Positions 1,437 to 35,573 of a stretch of DNA of 64,000 nucleotides are shown here, one piece after another; the stretch's first letter is position 1, and each line of letters starts with the position of its first letter. Made by a program: the position numbers and the translations under genes. The stretch spans positions 81,692-145,691 of the forward strand of contig JBAZUP010000001.1 of NCBI GenBank assembly GCA_041661385.1, read 5' to 3'. The notes under the pieces are model-generated. The model saw nothing but the letters and a program-made list of their open reading frames with translations, was not told the DNA's origin and searched no databases. This stretch comes from Patescibacteria group bacterium (GTDB taxonomy: Bacteria > Patescibacteriota > Patescibacteriia > Magasanikbacterales > GWA2-37-8).

Positions 1437-1901
1437 ATGTTTACCGCAATTTGCGTGGTAATAGTAATCGCTTTTGTGATTACTATGGTCAGCAGTCATG
1501 TGGGAAACGAAGTTGTTGAGAGCGGGTCAGATTGGGGTCACGCAATTAGTGTGGGCGGTTTTATCGGCAGCATGGCATTTTTGTTGGTGTTTGGACATCT
1601 CAGCCAGTCTTGGGCAGAGACACCATCGAATTTGGCGGGACTGTCTATGCCGTTTACACCATTGTATGCGCCTTCAACCGAATTTGTGATTTACGCTCCG
1701 GCCGGATGCGTGGTCTATTTCAAGACGGAGTCAGATCATATTCGGCCGGTAAAAAGCAACGGCAAGGAAATTTTTTTTGAAAAAAACGAAAATTCCGCGT
1801 TGCTCTACGGCCAAAAGTGTATTTGGCAGTTCAAAGTCGTTGGCCCAAGGCAAGCGAGTCATGAGTATGACCAAAGGGTCTCTGTGGTTATTCGAATCTA
1901 G
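1437..1901 (+). CDS. hypothetical membrane-anchored protein (GC-richer, SD-bearing)
   Basis: ORF 1389..1901 trimmed to ATG at 1437 preceded by GAGGGGGG SD; N-terminal hydrophobic helix; followed by structured element copy A. Confidence 0.4.
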   Translation: MFTAICVVIVIAFVITMVSSHVGNEVVESGSDWGHAISVGGFIGSMAFLLVFGHLSQSWAETPSNLAGLSMPFTPLYAPSTEFVIYAPAGCVVYFKTESDHIRPVKSNGKEIFFEKNENSALLYGQKCIWQFKVVGPRQASHEYDQRVSVVIRI

Positions 1902-1910
1902 AGATAAGAA

Positions 1911-2036
1911 GTAAAATATACGGGGGGTGGTAAGAAGTTCGCTACCACCAACCGTTTTGTTCATAAGGTTTGTGAATAAAACGGTAGCGAGCTTCATAAT
2001 TAAAAACATCCAGGTTATTTCTGGATGTTTTTAATT
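1911..2036 (+). ncRNA. conserved structured 3' RNA element, copy A (two alternative hairpins plus intrinsic terminator)
   Basis: ~70% identical to 17497..17628 with compensatory changes in all three stems (ggtggta/taccacc vs ggtggc/gccacc; catccag/ctggatg vs cctccg/cggagg). Confidence 0.45.
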
Positions 2037-16319: not shown

Positions 16320-16625
16320 ATGCTCGCAGTAATTGCAACTGGTGGCAAGCAGTACGTCGTTAAAAGCGGCGATGTTTTAAAAATTGAAAAAATTCTTGGT
16401 GAAGAAGGTTCAAAAATTTCCTTTGATCGCGTTTTACTTTCAGCCGATGAAAACGGTGAAAATGTAAAAATTGGCAACCCGACCGTTGCGGGATTAAAAG
16501 TGCCAGCCGTGATTTTGAAGCAAGGTAAACACCGAACTGTTAGAGTTGAAAAGTTCAAACGCAAGGTTCGTTACCACAAAGTACATGGTCAACGCCAACG
16601 CTTCACTGAAGTAAAAATCTCATAA
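16320..16625 (+). CDS. rplU: 50S ribosomal protein L21
   Basis: MLAVIATGGKQYVVKSGDVLKIEKI N-terminus characteristic of L21. Confidence 0.9.
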   Translation: MLAVIATGGKQYVVKSGDVLKIEKILGEEGSKISFDRVLLSADENGENVKIGNPTVAGLKVPAVILKQGKHRTVRVEKFKRKVRYHKVHGQRQRFTEVKIS

Positions 16626-16632
16626 ATAAACA

Positions 16633-16658
16633 ACCCGCCTTTAACTGGCGGGTTTTTT
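16633..16658 (+). terminator. intrinsic terminator after rplU
   Basis: cccgcc..ggcggg hairpin plus T6. Confidence 0.6.
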
Positions 16659-16688
16659 AATATTCTTAGCTAAGATTAGCAAAAACAG

Positions 16689-16717
16689 TTGACTGGTTTG
16701 CTGTTTTATGCTACAAT
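16689..16717 (+). promoter_or_regulatory. sigma70-type promoter TTGACT-17-TACAAT with ~108-nt structured leader
   Basis: consensus hexamers; leader hairpin agaacgaag..cctcgttct; strong AAAAGGAGAAG SD before 16826 ATG. Confidence 0.5.
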
Positions 16718-16825
16718 CTTTTGTTCCAATAGAACGAAGCGCAAACCGTTGTACCTCGTTCTATCGAAGCAAAAAGTTTCGATAATAACGCGGAACATAT
16801 CCGCCAACTCCAAAAGGAGAAGTAA

Positions 16826-17488
16826 ATGGCAAATATTATTTTTGCGATTCTGCGAGCCGCAGTTTACTCCTCGCTCATCATAGCTGTCATTTTCTCGGTG
16901 CACTTTTTGGTGACCCGGGCGAGGCGGGCGAGGCGAAACGGTTCTGGCATTTTCAGCAGTTTGCTGTTTGGATTCCTAAGGCTAGTTGGCGTATTTGTCC
17001 TAGTCATCGCGATATTCGGATTGCCCATCATAGCAGTGCTATATGTGTATCCGAAAATTGTTAACGCGAGGATTATGGAAAATAAGGCCCCAAACACGGA
17101 CATGATTGTCGAGGCGTCGGTGAAAGTTCCCGATATTCCTGAACCTGGTAATTCGGAGGTGATAATACCTCCAAAAAAGACAGTAAAAAGGATTGCCAAG
17201 TTTGAGGTAAGAGTGCGCGAAGGCATGACGGTAAAATTCGTTAAGAATGATGGTACCCCAACCGGTTCCATTCTCCGTCACCTTGGTGATAACACCAAAA
17301 CCATGCTCGCTCTTCCGGTTGAGCCAGAATCAGTCGCCATCATCTTCCCGATTCGGGCAGAAACAGATTGTTCATTCGAAACGAAGCAAACTCAAGGCGA
17401 GTATATTGCTTGTCAGCGAGTCGGCTCGTTCAAAGTCGAAAATGAAGTTCTAGGCATTGGCTATGCCACTTTCGACGCAGTAAAGTAA
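16826..17488 (+). CDS. hypothetical membrane-anchored protein (GC-richer, strong SD)
   Basis: two N-terminal hydrophobic helices then soluble domain; followed by structured element copy B. Confidence 0.45.
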   Translation: MANIIFAILRAAVYSSLIIAVIFSVHFLVTRARRARRNGSGIFSSLLFGFLRLVGVFVLVIAIFGLPIIAVLYVYPKIVNARIMENKAPNTDMIVEASVKVPDIPEPGNSEVIIPPKKTVKRIAKFEVRVREGMTVKFVKNDGTPTGSILRHLGDNTKTMLALPVEPESVAIIFPIRAETDCSFETKQTQGEYIACQRVGSFKVENEVLGIGYATFDAVK

Positions 17489-17496
17489 GTCACCGC

Positions 17497-17628
17497 CGTA
17501 GAAATACGGATAGGTGGCAGGGTTGAGCTCGCCGCCACCTACCGTTTTGTCCGCAAGTATTTGCGCATAGAACGGTGGCGAGCTCTATAATTTAAAAACC
17601 TCCGTTAATATTCGGAGGTTTTTATTTT
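17497..17628 (+). ncRNA. conserved structured 3' RNA element, copy B
   Basis: aligns with 1911..2036 including accgttttgt and aacggtRgcgagct cores and terminal hairpin plus U-run. Confidence 0.45.
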
Positions 17629-18242
17629 GAAGTGCGATTGTTGATTGCGCTACCGAGAGTGATTTCATCGGCGTATCTGAGGTCAGCGCCGAGTGGTAGG
17701 CCGCGCGCAAGTCTGGTAATTTTTATTTTAGGCTGCATTTTTTTTATTTCTTTTTCAAGATACATCATCGTGGTTTCACCAGGTAAATCCGGGTTTAGAG
17801 CTAGAATTATTTCTTTAATTGGTATTTTTTTATTGAAACCAGTTTTGCCGTTTATTCGGTCAAATAATTCACTGGCTTTTAATCTGGTCAGGCTTTCTTC
17901 ATCACCAGCATCAAGTAGCTCGCGTAAACAGTGGTAGACGCCCTTAAAAATGCCGGTTTGTTCTACGACTAATAAATCTTGCGATTCAGTCACTACGCAA
18001 ACCGTCGAACGATCACGTTTTAAATCCGAACAAATTGGGCAAGGGCTTTGATCGCTAAAATCCCAGCAGATCTCACAGCTTTTAATTTTATCAATCAAAT
18101 CTTTTAAGGATAGTATGAGTTCTGTTACTTCTTTTTTTCCGGATTTAAGCCAATGAAAAACATACCGTTCGGCTGTTCTCTCTCCAACCGACGGTAACTT
18201 CTTCAGAGCCAAAATTAATTTGTTTATCGAAGAGGAATACAT
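17622..18242 (-). CDS. recR: recombination protein RecR
   Basis: C4 zinc finger CEICWDFSDQSPCPIC, Toprim region. Confidence 0.9.
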   Translation of the reverse strand: MYSSSINKLILALKKLPSVGERTAERYVFHWLKSGKKEVTELILSLKDLIDKIKSCEICWDFSDQSPCPICSDLKRDRSTVCVVTESQDLLVVEQTGIFKGVYHCLRELLDAGDEESLTRLKASELFDRINGKTGFNKKIPIKEIILALNPDLPGETTMMYLEKEIKKMQPKIKITRLARGLPLGADLRYADEITLGSAINNRTSK

Positions 18243-24741: not shown

Positions 24742-24922
24742 AAACCGCCCATCTTGACAAAAGGCGGTTTTTATGTTATACTAATGCACGTTGGGTAACA
24801 GTTAAAAATAGTTCCCAAGGTGTCGTATAACCGCCATCCGCCGCAAGGCGAAGCGGCACGACCGGTCGATTAATTAAGTAGTCTCAAAACACATTTTGGG
24901 AACAAACAAGACACATAATTTT

Positions 24923-25252
24923 ATGGCTTTCGGAACAGACAGGCAAATGTACGATGTGAATCTTACCTGCGCAAAATGCGGTACACACATCTCTCAATTG
25001 CCATTCCAACCATCAGGTGACAGACCAGTGTACTGCAGCGAATGCAATCGCGCTTTCCGCCAAACCCGCACGGGTGGCAACGATCGCGGTGGCAGAAGCT
25101 TTGGCGGTGCTAGCAATGGTCCTCGTCAGATGTTCGATGTCAACTTGACATGCGCCAGCTGTGGAACTGCAATTACTCAATTGCCATTCCAACCATCTGG
25201 TGACAAACCAGTTTACTGCCGATCCTGCTTGCAGGCTCGCAGAAACAGCTAA
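24923..25252 (+). CDS. tandem zinc-ribbon protein (2 x CxxC-x18-CxxC) with RGG-rich linker
   Basis: internal duplication MYDVNLTCAKCGT..PVYCSEC / MFDVNLTCASCGT..PVYCRSC; tool start is TTG at 24896, ATG at 24923 preferred. Confidence 0.5.
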   Translation: MAFGTDRQMYDVNLTCAKCGTHISQLPFQPSGDRPVYCSECNRAFRQTRTGGNDRGGRSFGGASNGPRQMFDVNLTCASCGTAITQLPFQPSGDKPVYCRSCLQARRNS

Positions 25253-26487: not shown

Positions 26488-26892
26488 ATGAAAGTTAGTA
26501 GATATTGTATAGAGTATACCAATGGTGAAGTTTTTACTCTTGGTAATACATTTGGGGAAGTAAAAGAATTTTTTGCTGAGCTTTTAAAATTAAATTGGGC
26601 CGGAATGAACGAAGAGTGGCAAGATATATTAATATTTTTACAGATTTGGATGTATTATCGTTTTAAAATTGACGGTGAAATGTGGGAATATTCGCGTGAA
26701 TCTGCTAAAAAGTTTATGGATCGAGTAGAAATTTGGCACGATATCTATCAATATGCAGGGCTCGCTAGGAATACTTCTAATTTTTGCGGAAATTATAAAC
26801 GACCTGAGAAGGTCGTTAAGCAATTGGCTAAATATGGTATTGGCGCGGAAATGGCTCGTGAAGCTTATGATCGTATAGTAATAGGGGTGTAA
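26488..26892 (+). CDS. hypothetical protein, possibly MazG-like all-alpha NTP pyrophosphohydrolase
   Basis: EVKEFFAELLK and NEEWQDIL acidic motifs resemble ExxE...ExxD of MazG/HisE family; first gene of coupled operon (TAA-ATG junction). Confidence 0.3.
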   Translation: MKVSRYCIEYTNGEVFTLGNTFGEVKEFFAELLKLNWAGMNEEWQDILIFLQIWMYYRFKIDGEMWEYSRESAKKFMDRVEIWHDIYQYAGLARNTSNFCGNYKRPEKVVKQLAKYGIGAEMAREAYDRIVIGV

Positions 26893-26893
26893 A

Positions 26894-27814
26894 ATGAAAA
26901 AAGTATATTACATAAAGATATATTACAAACCTAAAAATATTTACGAAAAAAAAATATTATTTTTATTGCAGTCCCTAAGTAATATACGACGTATTAAATT
27001 CTTCCATCATTTTTTAGATCAAAACGGACTTGAGACTGTAAAAAAGATGAAAAAACTTCAGGAAACCCGAGGGTATAAATATTCCGGTAAACCAATTATT
27101 ACTAATAATATTGAAAAAGGTTTAGTTAAAATCAACACGGGACAAAATAGAAGTGTATTGCTTATCGTAATAAAAGCGGATGATAGGATAAAAAAAGAGA
27201 TCGATGACTTGTTAAATAAATTTAAGCATTTCTTTTTAAGCATAAAAATAAGCACAAAGTACGTTGAAGATGTTGAGATAATTACACCATTAAATATGCG
27301 TGGTGGTAATGATTTTCTAAATTTATCATTTTATATATCTAAAATTGCTATCGATTTGCTTAAAATTAAAAAAAATAGTGATTTAAAAAATATGCCGATG
27401 GTATTTCTTGGTGTTTCGGTAATTTTTGATCTGGAAAAAAAGTTTAAAAAAAAATATATATTTAAAAAAATAATTCACCAGTATCGCCTGTACTTAAATA
27501 AATATTTTATGTTTAATGAAAATGAGATGCTGTCTTTGAATAAAGCTAGTGAAAAATATGTTGGTATTTTAACTAAAGTTGACAAGTGTGAGTTTGATTT
27601 TCAGAATGGAGTGGTTTATAAATATTTTATTAACGGTATATATGATTATTTTAACAAGAGTAACCACCTAAAAAGAGTTGAAAATAATAACAAAAAGAGG
27701 CAACTATCGTGGCAATTTTTTCACTGGTTTAATAACTCACTGAATATCCATTTCGCCAAGGAAGTATTGTTGGTATTTGTGCTAATGAAATATTATGAGA
27801 GTAAAAAATCATGA
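26894..27814 (+). CDS. hypothetical Lys/Asn/Ile-rich protein (AT-rich island)
   Basis: strongly AT-biased codon usage unlike flanking genes; no motif. Confidence 0.4.
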   Translation: MKKVYYIKIYYKPKNIYEKKILFLLQSLSNIRRIKFFHHFLDQNGLETVKKMKKLQETRGYKYSGKPIITNNIEKGLVKINTGQNRSVLLIVIKADDRIKKEIDDLLNKFKHFFLSIKISTKYVEDVEIITPLNMRGGNDFLNLSFYISKIAIDLLKIKKNSDLKNMPMVFLGVSVIFDLEKKFKKKYIFKKIIHQYRLYLNKYFMFNENEMLSLNKASEKYVGILTKVDKCEFDFQNGVVYKYFINGIYDYFNKSNHLKRVENNNKKRQLSWQFFHWFNNSLNIHFAKEVLLVFVLMKYYESKKS

Positions 27815-29879
27815 TTATATAAGAACAACATCTGTTGAGTATAATCAGGCAGTAAAATTAGTTTCTACTACTTTTATTAATGAAACATTTAGAATGTTGT
27901 ATAAATTTGGTAAGTTTCCAAAATTAGACATTCGTACCATTGATGAAAGATGTGGGAAGGTAGATATGACTGCTTATATAAAATCATATGGAAAATGCAT
28001 ATCTTCAATTAAAAGTAGATTATATAAGCTCACTTTTTCCCCCGTCATCAGTGTTTGCATAGCATATAATAATAAACCGTTATTAGATGATTTTGAAAAA
28101 ATTAAATATTCAACTAATAAAAAAAGAAATAATAATGTATTTCGGTCACTAAATTTTTTTATAAGTAGAGCAACGTTTGACGCGACCTACGGTGGATTAT
28201 TTGGTTTTTATTCACATTTTAGATTTGTTTCAAGTCATAATGTGTCGTTTAATAAAAAGTTATTACTTTTTTCGGAAAAGAATAGGTTAGATGTTGATTC
28301 AGTTAAAATATCTAAATCGAATGTTTTTTCATTAAATCCAACGATTGTTATTAGTGAAAATTATGTAATGTATTTCAGATACAAAAAAAATGAGGAGGAA
28401 GTTATCAAGGTCCACAGTAAGGAGGTAGTTCGCTTATTTAAAAAATTAGCAAGTGCAAAATCAAATTTAATTAGCTTGGATGATTTAGAAAACGCAATTA
28501 AATTAACCGGGATTAGGAAGAATTTTGATAATAAATATTATTTATCGTTTGTTAGTAAATTAATAGATTTGGGACTTATCAAGCGAGATCCAATAAGTGT
28601 TAAGAATAAATTATTTAAAAATAGAAGTTTTGATATACCTTTTGAGGCTAAAAGTATAAGAGGCATAAAAGATGAAAAACATAGTATTTATGATCTTTAT
28701 AATGTAAATAATGTATATGTTGAAAATAGTCTAAGTAATGAATTCAAGGCCTCAACATCCATATATTTAAATTTATTAAACCAACAACTACAGTCAATTC
28801 ATAATGAAAAAGTCTATTTAGGCAACATCTTACGTCAATACCTAAAAAATATTAATAAGGATAGGTGCGGCTTGTTAGACTTCGTAGTCGTTTTTAAGGA
28901 CGAAATATTAAATCTTAAAAAATCGCGGGCGAATAATTCGTTTTCTTTTTATGAAAAATTTTTAAATGAAATCAATACTAACAAAAAAGCTGAAGAAGTC
29001 CAGTTTAAAAATATTTTTACACAAAAAAGCGAAGTTAAGAGCGATTTAGAATTTTATCTTTCTGTATGCAAAATTAATAATAAAAACCGAATTTTAATTA
29101 ATTGTATATCCCCGTCGGGTGTTTTAAGTTCTCGATTTGATTATATTCTAAAATCTAAGAGAACCATTTTTCACAGATCGATGTATGAACCTATTGAAGT
29201 TATATTCGAGCCACAAAATATTAATCTTTTTCATTCATTTAGAAGAAATAAATATACAAAATATTTTTTAAATATCAATTGTAATTTAAATAATTTACGT
29301 CAAGAAGTAATAAATGCTAATAGTATTTGTCTTACAATAGGTGAAAGCGGTCTGCCTGTGCTATTCAGCCCAGAAACAAACATGTTTTTTGATCCAGTTG
29401 TCCATTCCACATTATCTGCCGAACATAGTATAATTTTAGTTTTTTTAAGAATGATAAGCCGCTGCCAGGAGGAAATTGACGTCCTGCCACGACTATTGCC
29501 AGATCGGGTAAAGGGTTTAAATTATATTCCACGGGTAGTAGTCGAAAATTTGATAATATCTAAAAGGATTTGGAAAATTGAACTTGTGGAAATTAATATC
29601 ATTAATGGTTCGATACCCAAGTATAATGAGTATTTGTATTTAATGAATTATTTCAAGGTGAGAAAAATTCCACGTTTTGTTACTGTGTTTAGTCCGCTCA
29701 ATGAAAAACAAAAGTTTCTTGATTTGTATAATCCGTTTGCTTTTTTGTTGTTCAAAAAATATAAAAATGAAAAGTATATTTTTTTTGAAGAAATGATGCC
29801 GTCGCCAAACAACGTTAGTGATTTTGATGAAAAAAATAAACATTTTAATCAGTATTTTTTTACTCATCAAATTTCATAA
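27795..29879 (+). CDS. large hypothetical protein (694 aa), possibly LanB N-terminal-like
   Basis: size and position upstream of rSAM and LanB-C-like gene; no diagnostic motif verified. Confidence 0.35.
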   Translation: MRVKNHDYIRTTSVEYNQAVKLVSTTFINETFRMLYKFGKFPKLDIRTIDERCGKVDMTAYIKSYGKCISSIKSRLYKLTFSPVISVCIAYNNKPLLDDFEKIKYSTNKKRNNNVFRSLNFFISRATFDATYGGLFGFYSHFRFVSSHNVSFNKKLLLFSEKNRLDVDSVKISKSNVFSLNPTIVISENYVMYFRYKKNEEEVIKVHSKEVVRLFKKLASAKSNLISLDDLENAIKLTGIRKNFDNKYYLSFVSKLIDLGLIKRDPISVKNKLFKNRSFDIPFEAKSIRGIKDEKHSIYDLYNVNNVYVENSLSNEFKASTSIYLNLLNQQLQSIHNEKVYLGNILRQYLKNINKDRCGLLDFVVVFKDEILNLKKSRANNSFSFYEKFLNEINTNKKAEEVQFKNIFTQKSEVKSDLEFYLSVCKINNKNRILINCISPSGVLSSRFDYILKSKRTIFHRSMYEPIEVIFEPQNINLFHSFRRNKYTKYFLNINCNLNNLRQEVINANSICLTIGESGLPVLFSPETNMFFDPVVHSTLSAEHSIILVFLRMISRCQEEIDVLPRLLPDRVKGLNYIPRVVVENLIISKRIWKIELVEINIINGSIPKYNEYLYLMNYFKVRKIPRFVTVFSPLNEKQKFLDLYNPFAFLLFKKYKNEKYIFFEEMMPSPNNVSDFDEKNKHFNQYFFTHQIS

Positions 29880-29882
29880 TTT

Positions 29883-31253
29883 ATGGATGTCTCAAATATA
29901 AACAAATATAGTCTCAGAACATTGTTATCTCAACTATACAGTTGTGATGATTTTTTTATGGTCAGAGATATTTTAAGAATTATAATGATAAATAAAAAAA
30001 ATAATGAAATGATTTTCAAATCAATTAATAAAGTCGGGATAAAAAAAGAAAATAAGGATAAAATTTTAAAATTAAATAATAAATTAAAAAATACACCTGA
30101 CGTACATCTCAAATTTGATGGAGCGGTAATTTTTTATAAGCACATCTCTCCCGGTTGTGAGCATTGTGTTGTAGATATGGGCTGTACCATAAGGCCATCA
30201 ATCCAATGTAATAGAAATTGTTTTTTTTGTTTTGTAGACGATTCACCCATAACAAAAAAGATTAAACCCGATTTGGTTTCGATTAAAAAAATCATTAAGA
30301 ATCGATTTAAAGAAGAAAAATTTCAATCATTTGCGATTAGTGGAGGAGAGCCGTTTTTATATCCGGAAGAAGTTTTTGAGATTTTGCGATTTGTCAATAA
30401 TGAATTTGGAAGCAGTGTTTACACAAGAGTTTATACCAACGGAGATTTAGTTAATGAAAATATCTTGATTAAATTAAAAGAGTTAAAACTTAATGAAATT
30501 AGATTTAGTGTGAAGCCGCTTGAAGAGCCGAAAACGTCTTTATTAAAATGTGCAAAAAGGTATATTCCAACTGTTTTAATTGAAATGCCGGTACTTCCAA
30601 ATTCAGAAAAGTTTATGAAAAAATTAATTTTAAAGTTGGATAAAATCGGAATTGATGGAATAAATTTATTAGAATTATTTTATAATGGTCACAACTCGGA
30701 AATATTTAAAAAAAGGCATTACAAAATTGACATAACTGAAAGTGAGATTAGAAAAATTTATAACTCCAAACCAGTTTTTGAATATCCAATATATGGAAGT
30801 CGGGCGCTTTGTCTTAAATTACTCAAATATTTTTCCGATGCTAAATTGGGAATGTTTATTAATTTTTGTTCACAAAAAACCAAGCAGCTTCAATATGACC
30901 GGCGGCAAAAAAAAGTCGCTAGTGAAAATATGACGCCTTTTTCTATAATTACACCGGTTAGCACACATGAGGTATTAGCAATATATTCGGATTTAGAAAT
31001 GATTGAAAAAAAATTGAAAAACTTAGGAATAAAGGAGTATTTAGTTAGGAAAGATAAAAATATTAGTTTGAGAATTGAGACCAGCGTTACAAATATCGGA
31101 ATTTTTAGAAAAGAAAATATTTCTTTAGTCAAATTATATAGAGATCCTAGCAATACTTACGACATCGGTTTTAAGGTTATTAAAATCAAAAAAAATAAAG
31201 ATATAAATACAAATGTATCTGAACTGATTGACAACTTCAAAAAATATGTCTAA
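29883..31253 (+). CDS. radical SAM protein with extra N-terminal Cys cluster
   Basis: CNRNCFFC (CxxxCxxC) preceded by CEHCVVDMGC; glycine-rich SAM motif FAISGGEPFLYPE; ~90-aa N-terminal extension; no SPASM Cys set. Confidence 0.8.
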   Translation: MDVSNINKYSLRTLLSQLYSCDDFFMVRDILRIIMINKKNNEMIFKSINKVGIKKENKDKILKLNNKLKNTPDVHLKFDGAVIFYKHISPGCEHCVVDMGCTIRPSIQCNRNCFFCFVDDSPITKKIKPDLVSIKKIIKNRFKEEKFQSFAISGGEPFLYPEEVFEILRFVNNEFGSSVYTRVYTNGDLVNENILIKLKELKLNEIRFSVKPLEEPKTSLLKCAKRYIPTVLIEMPVLPNSEKFMKKLILKLDKIGIDGINLLELFYNGHNSEIFKKRHYKIDITESEIRKIYNSKPVFEYPIYGSRALCLKLLKYFSDAKLGMFINFCSQKTKQLQYDRRQKKVASENMTPFSIITPVSTHEVLAIYSDLEMIEKKLKNLGIKEYLVRKDKNISLRIETSVTNIGIFRKENISLVKLYRDPSNTYDIGFKVIKIKKNKDINTNVSELIDNFKKYV

Positions 31254-32058
31254 AAAAATATATCGGAACAAAGGTTGCGTAAAAATATCTAGCTGGATAC
31301 AATTAAGAATTACAAATTGTAAGTTCGGTGATGATTATATTTTAGGGGACCTTTCAAAATATTTGGAAATATTAAGAAACAAAAAACAAATAAAATCTTG
31401 GTTTTTTTTAAATAAAAATGATTCAATCCTGCTAAAAATTGAATCTGCTGATAAGTATTCGAATAAATTTTTGGATGTAATTAAATATTTAAAGCAAAAT
31501 GGTCCTCGGATTAATGTCACCACAGAACCATTTGAACCTGAGATTTTTCAGTTCGGTGGTAAAACTGGGTGGGCTGTAGCTTCAAAATATTTCAACTCTA
31601 TTTCAGTATTGTCTATTAAATCAATTAAATCTAAAATAACGAATATAAACGCCGCCATTGTTTTGGTATTTGATTTGCTGATGAGAAATAATTCTGACTC
31701 GTTTGAGGTTTGGGATATTATGCAGAGGTTGATGATAATAAGGGGAGTTTCTCAAGATTATTCCTCTGCCGGTATTGAGAAAAATACAATATATCAAAAT
31801 ATTAACACATTATTTAATAAGCCCGATAAATTTTATCTCGAAACATTTAAAAATACAAAAATGATTAAGGAAGTTGTAGCAGCCAGTAAATATTGCCTAC
31901 GAGAACTTAAAAAAAATGAACGTTCATTAATCTTTTCGCACAGGAAAATATTACCTTATTATGTAATATTTATTTTTAATATGTTGCTGATTTCTGAGAG
32001 TGAGCAAAAAGATATTATAAAATCAATGTCTGTTTTGTGTAATCCTGGAAAATATTAA
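31228..32058 (+). CDS. LanB C-terminal (SpaB_C / thiopeptide-type bacteriocin biosynthesis)-like domain protein
   Basis: SWFFLNKNDSILLKIE resembles the WFF-x5-D-x2-L-x-L block and FEPEIFQFGG resembles the YxPExxRYGG block recalled for Lant_dehydr_C; alternative start ATG 31246. Confidence 0.4.
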   Translation: MTTSKNMSKKIYRNKGCVKISSWIQLRITNCKFGDDYILGDLSKYLEILRNKKQIKSWFFLNKNDSILLKIESADKYSNKFLDVIKYLKQNGPRINVTTEPFEPEIFQFGGKTGWAVASKYFNSISVLSIKSIKSKITNINAAIVLVFDLLMRNNSDSFEVWDIMQRLMIIRGVSQDYSSAGIEKNTIYQNINTLFNKPDKFYLETFKNTKMIKEVVAASKYCLRELKKNERSLIFSHRKILPYYVIFIFNMLLISESEQKDIIKSMSVLCNPGKY

Positions 32059-35465: not shown

Positions 35466-35573
35466 CAAAATTCTAATAAATACTAACCGGTGCGGTGGAG
35501 CTCGATGAAAGATTGAGCGCTGATATCGCGGCAGTGGTTGGTATTTTTTCATTACAAATTTAAAAAACAGCGT

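Follow-up and report, generated by a model that had tools for sequence, protein, structure and literature searches.

A 64,000-nucleotide stretch of the genome of a Patescibacteria group bacterium (contig JBAZUP010000001.1, positions 81,692 to 145,691; this whole stretch is the window below) carries two copies of a previously undescribed structured RNA. In the sense RNA, the element comes after the stop codon of a small, rapidly evolving membrane-protein gene and ahead of a bidirectional terminator. It was duplicated once within this genome, giving copies A and B. Compensatory substitutions on the + strand preserve its fold, and element and gene have been passed on together at one site, with a patchy distribution, in a small clade of Magasanikbacteria-like Patescibacteria. 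With about even confidence, and with a mechanism that we infer, we read it as a lineage-restricted, cis-encoded RNA of the 3′ untranslated region (UTR) that would be recognised by a sequence-specific factor.

Two copies of one folded RNA

Copy B occupies 17489–17628 (+), from the first base past a TAA stop codon to the end of a T tract, and forms a folded RNA of roughly 130 bases between the stop of an open reading frame (ORF; 16826–17488) and the stop of the convergent recR gene (17622–18242, −). Its minimum free energy (MFE) of −68.8 kcal/mol compares with −38.4 ± 3.8 kcal/mol for 200 shuffled sequences (z = −8.0), and the overall fold is a bulged 25-bp hairpin composed of a 9-bp stem (P1), a 7-nt bulge on the 5′ side and a 16-bp stem (P2). 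The parts of copy B are as follows.

17489–17494 × 17513–17518 (+): P0, the 5′ module of the B type, GUCACC paired with GGUGGC in the MFE fold and abutting the stop codon
17496–17509 (+): small hairpin CCGUAGAAAUACGG, enclosed by P0
17513–17518 (+): GGUGGC, proposed 5′ strand of a pseudoknot, doubling as the 3′ strand of P0 and complementary to GCCACC of the bulge
17525–17533 (+): 5′ strand of P1, GAGCUCGCC
17534–17540 (+): asymmetric 7-nt bulge GCCACCU on the 5′ side, unpaired in the MFE folds, proposed 3′ strand of the pseudoknot
17541–17576 (+): P2 hairpin with loop GUAU, its base ACCGUUUUG/..AACGGU conserved and its tip variable and covarying
17577–17585 (+): 3′ strand of P1, GGCGAGCUC, pairing with 17525–17533
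17586–17628 (+): A/U-rich spacer UAUAAUUUAAAAAC, then a bidirectional intrinsic terminator (CCUCCG, 8-nt loop, CGGAGG, UUUUUAUUUU)

A linker of 6 nt separates GGUGGC from P1, and the T tract of the terminator overlaps the recR stop codon (17622–17624). A G+C-rich hairpin runs directly into a U tract, as in intrinsic (Rho-independent) terminators, and each of the six folded sequences has such a terminator after the element. A terminator scan flagged copy A and not copy B, probably because the A and T tracts of copy B pair with each other, so that the stem is lengthened and not enough T's remain in the tail that the scan inspects.

Copy A, at 1926–2036 (+), follows an ORF that starts at 1389 or 1437 and ends at 1901, is convergent with recJ and folds with z = −9.5. 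It repeats the plan of copy B without the GUCACC module.

1926–1931 (+): GGUGGU
1935–1943 × 1986–1994 (+): P1, strands AAGUUCGCU/AGCGAGCUU
1944–1950 (+): bulge ACCACCA
1951–1966 × 1970–1985 (+): P2
1995–2007 (+): spacer
2008–2026 (+): terminator hairpin, followed by a T tract

BLASTN comparison of the two whole loci yields a single significant segment, 1936–2036 against 17526–17627 (76% identity, E = 1e-13). The coding and upstream regions of the two loci give no BLASTN match, so that the likeness is limited to about 100 nt past the stop codons. A covariance model built from copies A and B (R1) and run over the entire window with filters off recovers only these two, at 111 and 90 bits, with everything else at background. 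A repeated structured 3′ element had been described here by an earlier sequence-only reading of the window, and these results bear it out; its suggestion of a partial copy after infA (about 35490) does not survive, as 35533–35568 scores 10.6 bits (E = 2.4), which is background under R1. The infA site itself (35476–35550, +), which ends before a small gene that reads as L36/rpmJ, is simply a long terminator-like hairpin (about −32 kcal/mol) with a T tract behind it.

The terminator stems of copies A and B share no common sequence and retain their flanking A and T tracts, which indicates that the copies are old and that their conserved parts are under constraint. At copy A, the recJ stop codon (2015–2017, −) sits in the terminator loop, and the last five recJ codons are encoded by the 3′ arm of the terminator and the T tract (2008–2036).

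Inheritance at the rplU–recR site

Relatives of the copy B locus were reached through the closest homologues of RecR, which belong to Magasanikbacteria-like Patescibacteria, and then through their contigs. RecR identities are given relative to the RecR of the window.

L026, L027, L029 (RecR 99–100%): element identical to copy B
L028 (RecR 90%): element present, 93.9 bits
L041 (RecR 78%): element present, 68 bits, cut by the contig end
L030/L031 (RecR 76%): element present, 61.6 bits
L032/L033 (RecR 76%): element present, 49 bits
L034/L035 (RecR 73%): element present, 45 and 42 bits
L038 (RecR 75%): element absent; other ORFs and a terminator only
L039, L040 (RecR 73%): element absent; other ORFs and a terminator only
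L036/L037 (RecR 71%): element absent; rplU and recR face each other with 46 nt between them

The element thus occupies the rplU–recR site in five related lineages whose RecR proteins are 73–90% identical to that of the window. In all loci it lies 13–33 nt past the ORF stop codon and stands directly before the terminator, at a spacing of 10–35 nt (L030 has an insertion of roughly 30 nt). Occupation of the same site across related lineages indicates inheritance in place and not recent import. The two cassettes had been proposed to be acquired, a view that this distribution contradicts: promoter, leader, ORF and 3′ element of cassette B are all found at the same site in these lineages, and the raised G+C content of the ORFs is conserved in every one of them and therefore gives no evidence of recent import.

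Covariation, strand and sequence constraint

Covariation was assessed on an alignment of seven distinct sequences from one clade, fitted to the model. In this alignment 94.9% of cells are paired and 9 of the 25 pairs show changes on both sides (P1 pairs 1, 8 and 9; P2 pairs 4, 7, 10, 11, 12 and 13, which is 6 of its 16). The observed covariation score was reached by none of 500 shuffles, and control structures in which the partners were slid by 1–3 columns gave 35–45% paired cells. L041 contributes further compensatory pairs. Recurrent G–U pairs are found in P2 (positions 7, 9 and 14) and in P1 (positions 4 and 7), and the + strand is the more stable one in each of six 3′ UTRs, by 2.5–13 kcal/mol. 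Together, the G–U pairs and the greater stability of the + strand indicate that the functional strand is the sense strand of the upstream ORF and not the recR/recJ strand.

We noted that the element also changes more slowly than its surroundings. Compared with the window, its core shows 88% identity in L028 and 84% in L030. The corresponding values are 75% and 72% for recR DNA (46% and 45% at third codon positions) and 67% and 74% for rplU DNA, and the upstream ORF retains only 50–53% identity as DNA and 26–33% as protein. Within the element, the tip of P2 and the terminator stems drift with compensation, and the sequences of P1, lower P2, GGUGG and the bulge are kept beyond the needs of base pairing. 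Retention of P1, lower P2 and GGUGG/CCACC amid drift of the terminator stems and the P2 tip is the reason for proposing a recognition site; a conserved stem with a drifting tip is not the pattern expected of a generic stabilising hairpin.

Searches for known families and a possible third member

No Rfam 15 model (4227 covariance models) matches anywhere in the window at gathering thresholds. A permissive Rfam search of 17400–17700 (E up to 10) returned sub-threshold, unrelated small RNA (sRNA) and leader models, nearly all over the terminator hairpin, the best at 25.6 bits against a threshold of 55. An exact-pattern scan of species-representative genomes gave 10 matches, in high-G+C Actinomycetota and similar genomes, which are attributable to chance and were rejected by the covariance model. 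The same kind of scan of a metagenome collection gave 13 matches, likewise rejected; the carrier L030 fits the pattern, and its sample lies outside that collection. Three viral pattern scans produced nothing real: matches to the element pattern were rejected by the covariance model, and the more than 120 matches to the leader pattern were judged, unscored and from a rough estimate of collection size, to be about as many as chance would give.

A richer covariance model (R2) picks out one more structure in the window, candidate C, at 40385–40461 (+), with 26 bits and a rough E of about 4e-5.

40395–40403 × 40441–40449 (+): P1, 9 bp, CCAGGCGUC paired with GACGCCUGG
40404–40407 (+): 4-nt bulge CAUC on the 5′ side
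40408–40440 (+): P2, with an ACC..GGU base
40462–40490 (+): bidirectional terminator, preceded by an A-rich spacer

Candidate C folds with z = −6.9 and lies directly 3′ of a metzincin-like ORF (HEVGHMFG); its bulge CAUC has a complement in a GAUG that overlaps the stop codon. It faces a convergent Cys-rich ORF of 621 amino acids for which Pfam gives no match. Its score falls in the same range as those of the reverse strands of the true copies, so that it may be an analogue in shape only; 40385–40490 is possibly either a divergent third member or such an analogue. If real, it would loosen the tie of the element to membrane-protein genes and strengthen the tie to convergent junctions. The surrounding region (40000–42400) is high in G+C (50–54%) and consists mostly of the 621-residue ORF (−).

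These observations bear on two rival explanations. The first holds that the element is a DNA palindrome, of the repetitive extragenic palindromic (REP)/REPIN kind or like a miniature inverted-repeat transposable element, lodged between convergent genes and folding only incidentally. In its favour, the element comes close to a palindrome (about 64 nt, interrupted by a single asymmetric bulge), occurs in two or three copies in 64 kb, all at convergent junctions, and is patchily present at rplU–recR among relatives, with an 'empty' site in L036. Against it, the orientation to the upstream ORF is the same in seven of seven loci, the single orthologous position is held across lineages with RecR 73–90% identical with no sign of movement, and the G–U asymmetry and compensatory changes favour one RNA strand. 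The flanks show no visible target-site duplication, the ORFs and loci inspected contain no transposase, and the genome, metagenome and viral pattern scans gave no real matches. We regard this explanation as very improbable.

Under the second explanation, the element would be a stable hairpin with no specific partner, serving generically as a 3′ stabiliser against 3′-to-5′ exonucleases or as a tandem terminator that reinforces termination ahead of a convergent gene. The position, the strong hairpin and the combination of a strong promoter with a 5′-terminal hairpin do suggest a unit of high, stable expression, and 40385–40461 shows a similar shape in a different sequence. A generic hairpin should drift, whereas P1, lower P2, the bulge and GGUGG stay 84–88% identical where synonymous sites are near saturation, and we consider this explanation rather unlikely; were it correct, the element would be a modest new RNA motif of narrow distribution. 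Of all the alternatives, the generic stabiliser and the mobile palindrome agree least with the constrained sequence, the asymmetry between strands and the invariant orientation.

A proposed recognition site at the mRNA 3′ end

In the reading that we favour, a trans-acting, sequence-specific factor, for example an RNA-binding protein or a ribonuclease, would recognise the element and would protect or process the 3′ end of the mRNA, thereby determining its fate. Pairing of the upstream GGUGGY with the RCCACC of the bulge probably forms an H-type pseudoknot stacked on P1. The bulge consensus RCCACCW is kept in copies A and B, L028, L030 and L041, and GGUGGY pairs with RCCACC over 6 bp in both copies of the window and in L028 and L030. 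Across the alignment 86.5% of the pseudoknot cells are paired, and pair 6 (6–22) is U–A in four sequences and C–G in three: C–G in the B type, U–A in copy A, L032 and L034. On this evidence from sequence, the pseudoknot is plausible.

The B type adds a second possibility for the same strand. P0 appears in the MFE folds of copy B, L028 and L030, with GUCACC abutting the stop codon in all three; it is kept in L028 and L030, with a U–A to A–U swap in the small hairpin, and is absent from copy A, L032 and L034. The pairings GGUGGC × GUCACC and GGUGGC × bulge are mutually exclusive. A ribosome terminating at the adjacent stop codon could open P0 and free GGUGGC for the pseudoknot, and folding of the element would thereby be coupled to translation of the upstream ORF. 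Taken further, this suggests a translation-gated 3′-UTR switch whose two states would differ in nuclease access or termination efficiency and which would read out translation of the message, an idea that we rate as distinctly unlikely. If true, it could tune antisense read-through into the RecFOR genes recR and recJ, and it would represent a new class of riboregulator specific to the candidate phyla radiation (CPR) that, together with the 5′ leader, frames a hypervariable surface-protein gene.

Several points weigh against recognition of a conserved 3′-UTR element by a specific factor. The element is missing at the same site in L038–L040, though L038 has a probable homologue of the protein, which makes it dispensable. 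Covariation was counted on a model-fitted alignment of only seven sequences of one clade, and the pseudoknot is supported by one covarying pair, with the CCACC partner in L032 and L034 overlapping the top of P1. The absence of P0 from copy A, L032 and L034 means that translational gating is not general. The genome and metagenome pattern scans, which required exact matches, gave no further members. A strict tie to one protein family is opposed by L038 and by the similarly shaped structure C, which follows an unrelated metzincin-like gene. The promoter and the 3′ end are predictions, as are any processing and any bound factor.

A 3′-UTR-derived sRNA acting in trans would share the location and part of the anatomy of the element. 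On this view, processing would free the stretch between about GGUGG and the terminator, which would act on other mRNAs by pairing through its C-rich bulge CCACCUACC. The bulge is unpaired, conserved and complementary to GGUGG, similar to Shine–Dalgarno-like targets; the layout of hairpin, A/U-rich spacer and terminator is suggestive; and conservation above that of the upstream coding sequence is typical of CpxQ and SdhX. Yet most of the conserved bases are paired inside the element, the best partner of the bulge lies in the same RNA, and there is no known target or chaperone. An internal promoter for a separate sRNA was sought and rejected for want of conserved boxes, −10-like hexamers occurring only in copy A and L028 with poor −35 spacing. 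The sRNA explanation is unlikely, though it keeps some weight.

A pseudoknot-capable fold immediately 5′ of an intrinsic terminator also recalls a riboswitch-like sensor that would control the terminator and hence antisense read-through into the convergent recombination genes recR and recJ of the RecFOR pathway; riboswitch-controlled antisense RNAs exist in Listeria and Clostridium, and the convergent partners here are indeed recR and recJ. Very few bases are both conserved and unpaired, which leaves little for a ligand pocket, and no conserved pairing joins the element to the terminator, whose stems are different in each lineage and find no corresponding change in the element. The variable spacing to the terminator (10–35 nt), the unrelated gene that faces the element-like structure C and the plain terminator after recR in relatives that lack the element also speak against such a sensor, which we hold to be highly improbable.

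We know of almost no described regulatory RNAs in candidate-phyla-radiation bacteria, whose genomes are tiny. Here a fold of roughly 90 nt and a structured leader stay nearly unchanged around a protein that has diverged to about 30% identity or been exchanged altogether, a pattern that points to dedicated post-transcriptional control of a fast-evolving, probably surface-exposed protein family. Some of these organisms are reported to live in symbiosis, a lifestyle in which such proteins might be important. With the covariance model there is a tool for finding further members, and the element itself is a small, testable RNA with a competing pair of helices.

The upstream cassette

The gene upstream of copy B has its own promoter and leader, and the features of both cassettes and of the gene convergent with copy B are listed here.

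16689–16717 (+): promoter of cassette B, TTGACT, 17 nt, TACAAT, with TG before the −10 box (extended −10); the boxes and an upstream GCAAAAA are conserved in L028, L030, L032 and L034
16718–16825 (+): structured 5′ leader of 108 nt, fold z = −7.06
16826–17488 (+): ORF B, 220 amino acids, with two hydrophobic N-terminal helices, a linker and a β-rich C-terminal domain
1437–1901 (+): ORF A, 154 amino acids from the ATG after GAGGGGGG (170 from the first ATG, at 1389), hydrophobic N-terminus
17622–18242 (−): recR, convergent, with Pfam domains RecR_HhH, RecR_ZnF, Toprim_4 and RecR_C

The sequence-only reading had named this promoter, a structured leader, a strong Shine–Dalgarno sequence (AAAAGGAGAAG, which precedes the ATG at 16826) and small upstream proteins with an N-terminal membrane anchor and raised G+C, and these descriptions hold, the N-termini of both proteins being hydrophobic; the two ORFs have 46–47% G+C against 38.8% for the window. 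The leader consists of a long 5′-terminal hairpin on the invariant base GUUUUGAU/AUCGAAGC, a hairpin UCGAAGC..GUUUCGA that is able to compete for the AUCGAAGC strand, a third hairpin and the Shine–Dalgarno sequence AAGGAG. RNAalifold on five orthologues gives 20 pairs, with compensatory changes in 11, for the long 5′-terminal hairpin. The leader of cassette B has no Rfam match. Promoter and leader are conserved in all five rplU–recR cassettes that carry the 3′ element, and copy A is without the leader.

The encoded proteins are sparsely represented in databases. Homologues of ORF B at the same site in L028 and L030 are about 30% identical to it, the family has only 8 matches among 1.84 billion representative proteins, and Pfam gives none. 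AlphaFold, from a six-sequence alignment, predicts two long N-terminal helices and a confident β-rich C-terminal domain, for which the PDB holds no significant match. Word-indexed protein searches with ORFs A and B returned self-matches only. The 257-residue ORF of L032 and the ORFs of L034 (58 and 90 residues) have no detectable homology to the protein B family, and cassette ORFs of all lineages have hydrophobic N-termini and raised G+C. Remote homology between proteins A and B, proposed earlier as worth checking, comes out as a hint: hhalign aligns the two at E = 0.28, a shared F-x-V...G..V.F pattern appears, and a single comparison of protein A with the L032 protein gives E = 0.005, with the common motif IYAxxGxxVYFK.

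The neighbours of the cassettes are rplU, recR, rmlD and recJ. The rplU–recR interval (16626–17621 in the window) is a hypervariable islet, with small ORFs that are non-homologous or about 30% identical across lineages and none in L036/L037. rplU and rpmA are normally paired, a pairing that is broken in this lineage: in the region 16320–16660, rplU ends in its own terminator (16632–16654) and no rpmA (L27) follows.

Comparison with known systems

The element shares features with several characterized systems. REP sequences, bacterial interspersed mosaic elements and enterobacterial 3′-UTR stabilising hairpins are likewise imperfect 3′-UTR palindromes, often between convergent genes, that are co-transcribed and stand beside terminators or replace them. 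REP sequences differ in being about 35 nt long, in occurring in hundreds of copies in both orientations and in being mobilised by REP-associated tyrosine transposases (RAYTs), whereas the present element is seen in two or three copies in the window, always in the same orientation, keeps its orthologous position between species and has a long bulged stem with sequence-constrained parts. The icaR 3′ UTR of Staphylococcus aureus carries a C-rich motif with a G-rich partner in the same transcript, and that pairing affects translation or decay. The icaR partner is the Shine–Dalgarno region in the 5′ UTR; here, by contrast, the bulge has its perfect partner (GGUGG) inside the 3′ UTR, some 15 nt upstream, and would mismatch the real Shine–Dalgarno sequences (GGAG).

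The sib retroregulator of phage lambda is also a structured site located 3′ of a coding region and beside a terminator, and how it folds determines whether nucleases attack the upstream message. There is no sequence or detailed structural similarity, and sib requires antiterminated read-through and RNase III. CpxQ and SdhX, like the element, come from 3′ UTRs that are conserved above the coding sequence and end in the terminator of the gene itself; they differ in that the conserved bases of the element are mostly engaged within the molecule, with no known processing site or seed–target relation.

Integron attC sites resemble the element as imperfect palindromes of 60–140 nt located 3′ of variable ORFs, with conserved basal stems, extrahelical bases and a variable tip. 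An attC identity was considered and rejected. The RYYYAAC/GTTRRRY core sites are absent, the P1 strands being GAGCUCGCC/GGCGAGCUC and GTT and AAC occurring only in P2 and in the opposite order. Single cassettes stand at two separate loci, cassette B with its own promoter, in place of a promoterless tandem array next to intI; no integrase was seen, and selection acts on sense-strand RNA G–U pairs.

Four other candidates were set aside. Type I toxin–antitoxin systems (hok-like, with toxins under about 60 amino acids) do not fit, as most of the ORFs encode 154–257 amino acids with a folded C-terminal domain and only L034 has the shorter pair of 58 and 90; a search for the promoter of a cis-encoded antisense RNA between terminator and element found none. 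A micro-ORF within the element (start codons TTG, TTG and ATG after GGUGG in copy B, L028 and L030; MSSPPPTVL...) has no start codon in copy A and differs between copy B, L028 and L030 in length (15, 24 and 18 amino acids) and C terminus; moreover, the partner strand of P1 compensates for precisely the change that turns Pro into Leu in L030. Stop-codon read-through or recoding is contradicted by the use of all three stop codons, the variable distance to the fold (13–33 nt) and an in-frame stop four codons later in L028. Kissing between a leader loop and the element, joining 5′ and 3′ UTRs, has complementarity in copy B only and not in L028 or L030.

Other features of the window

A block of about 5.5 kb (26500–32000) has a G+C content of 26–29% against 39% for the window and may be foreign or a distinct island. 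Within the ORF at 24896–25252, a 93-nt direct repeat (24944–25036 and 25127–25219; 77% identical, 183 nt apart) looks like an internal duplication of a Cys-containing module. A 39-nt inverted repeat (24753–24791 and 56199–56237; 82% complementary) contains TTGACA...TATACT-like boxes and may represent two related promoters in opposite orientation, 31 kb apart.

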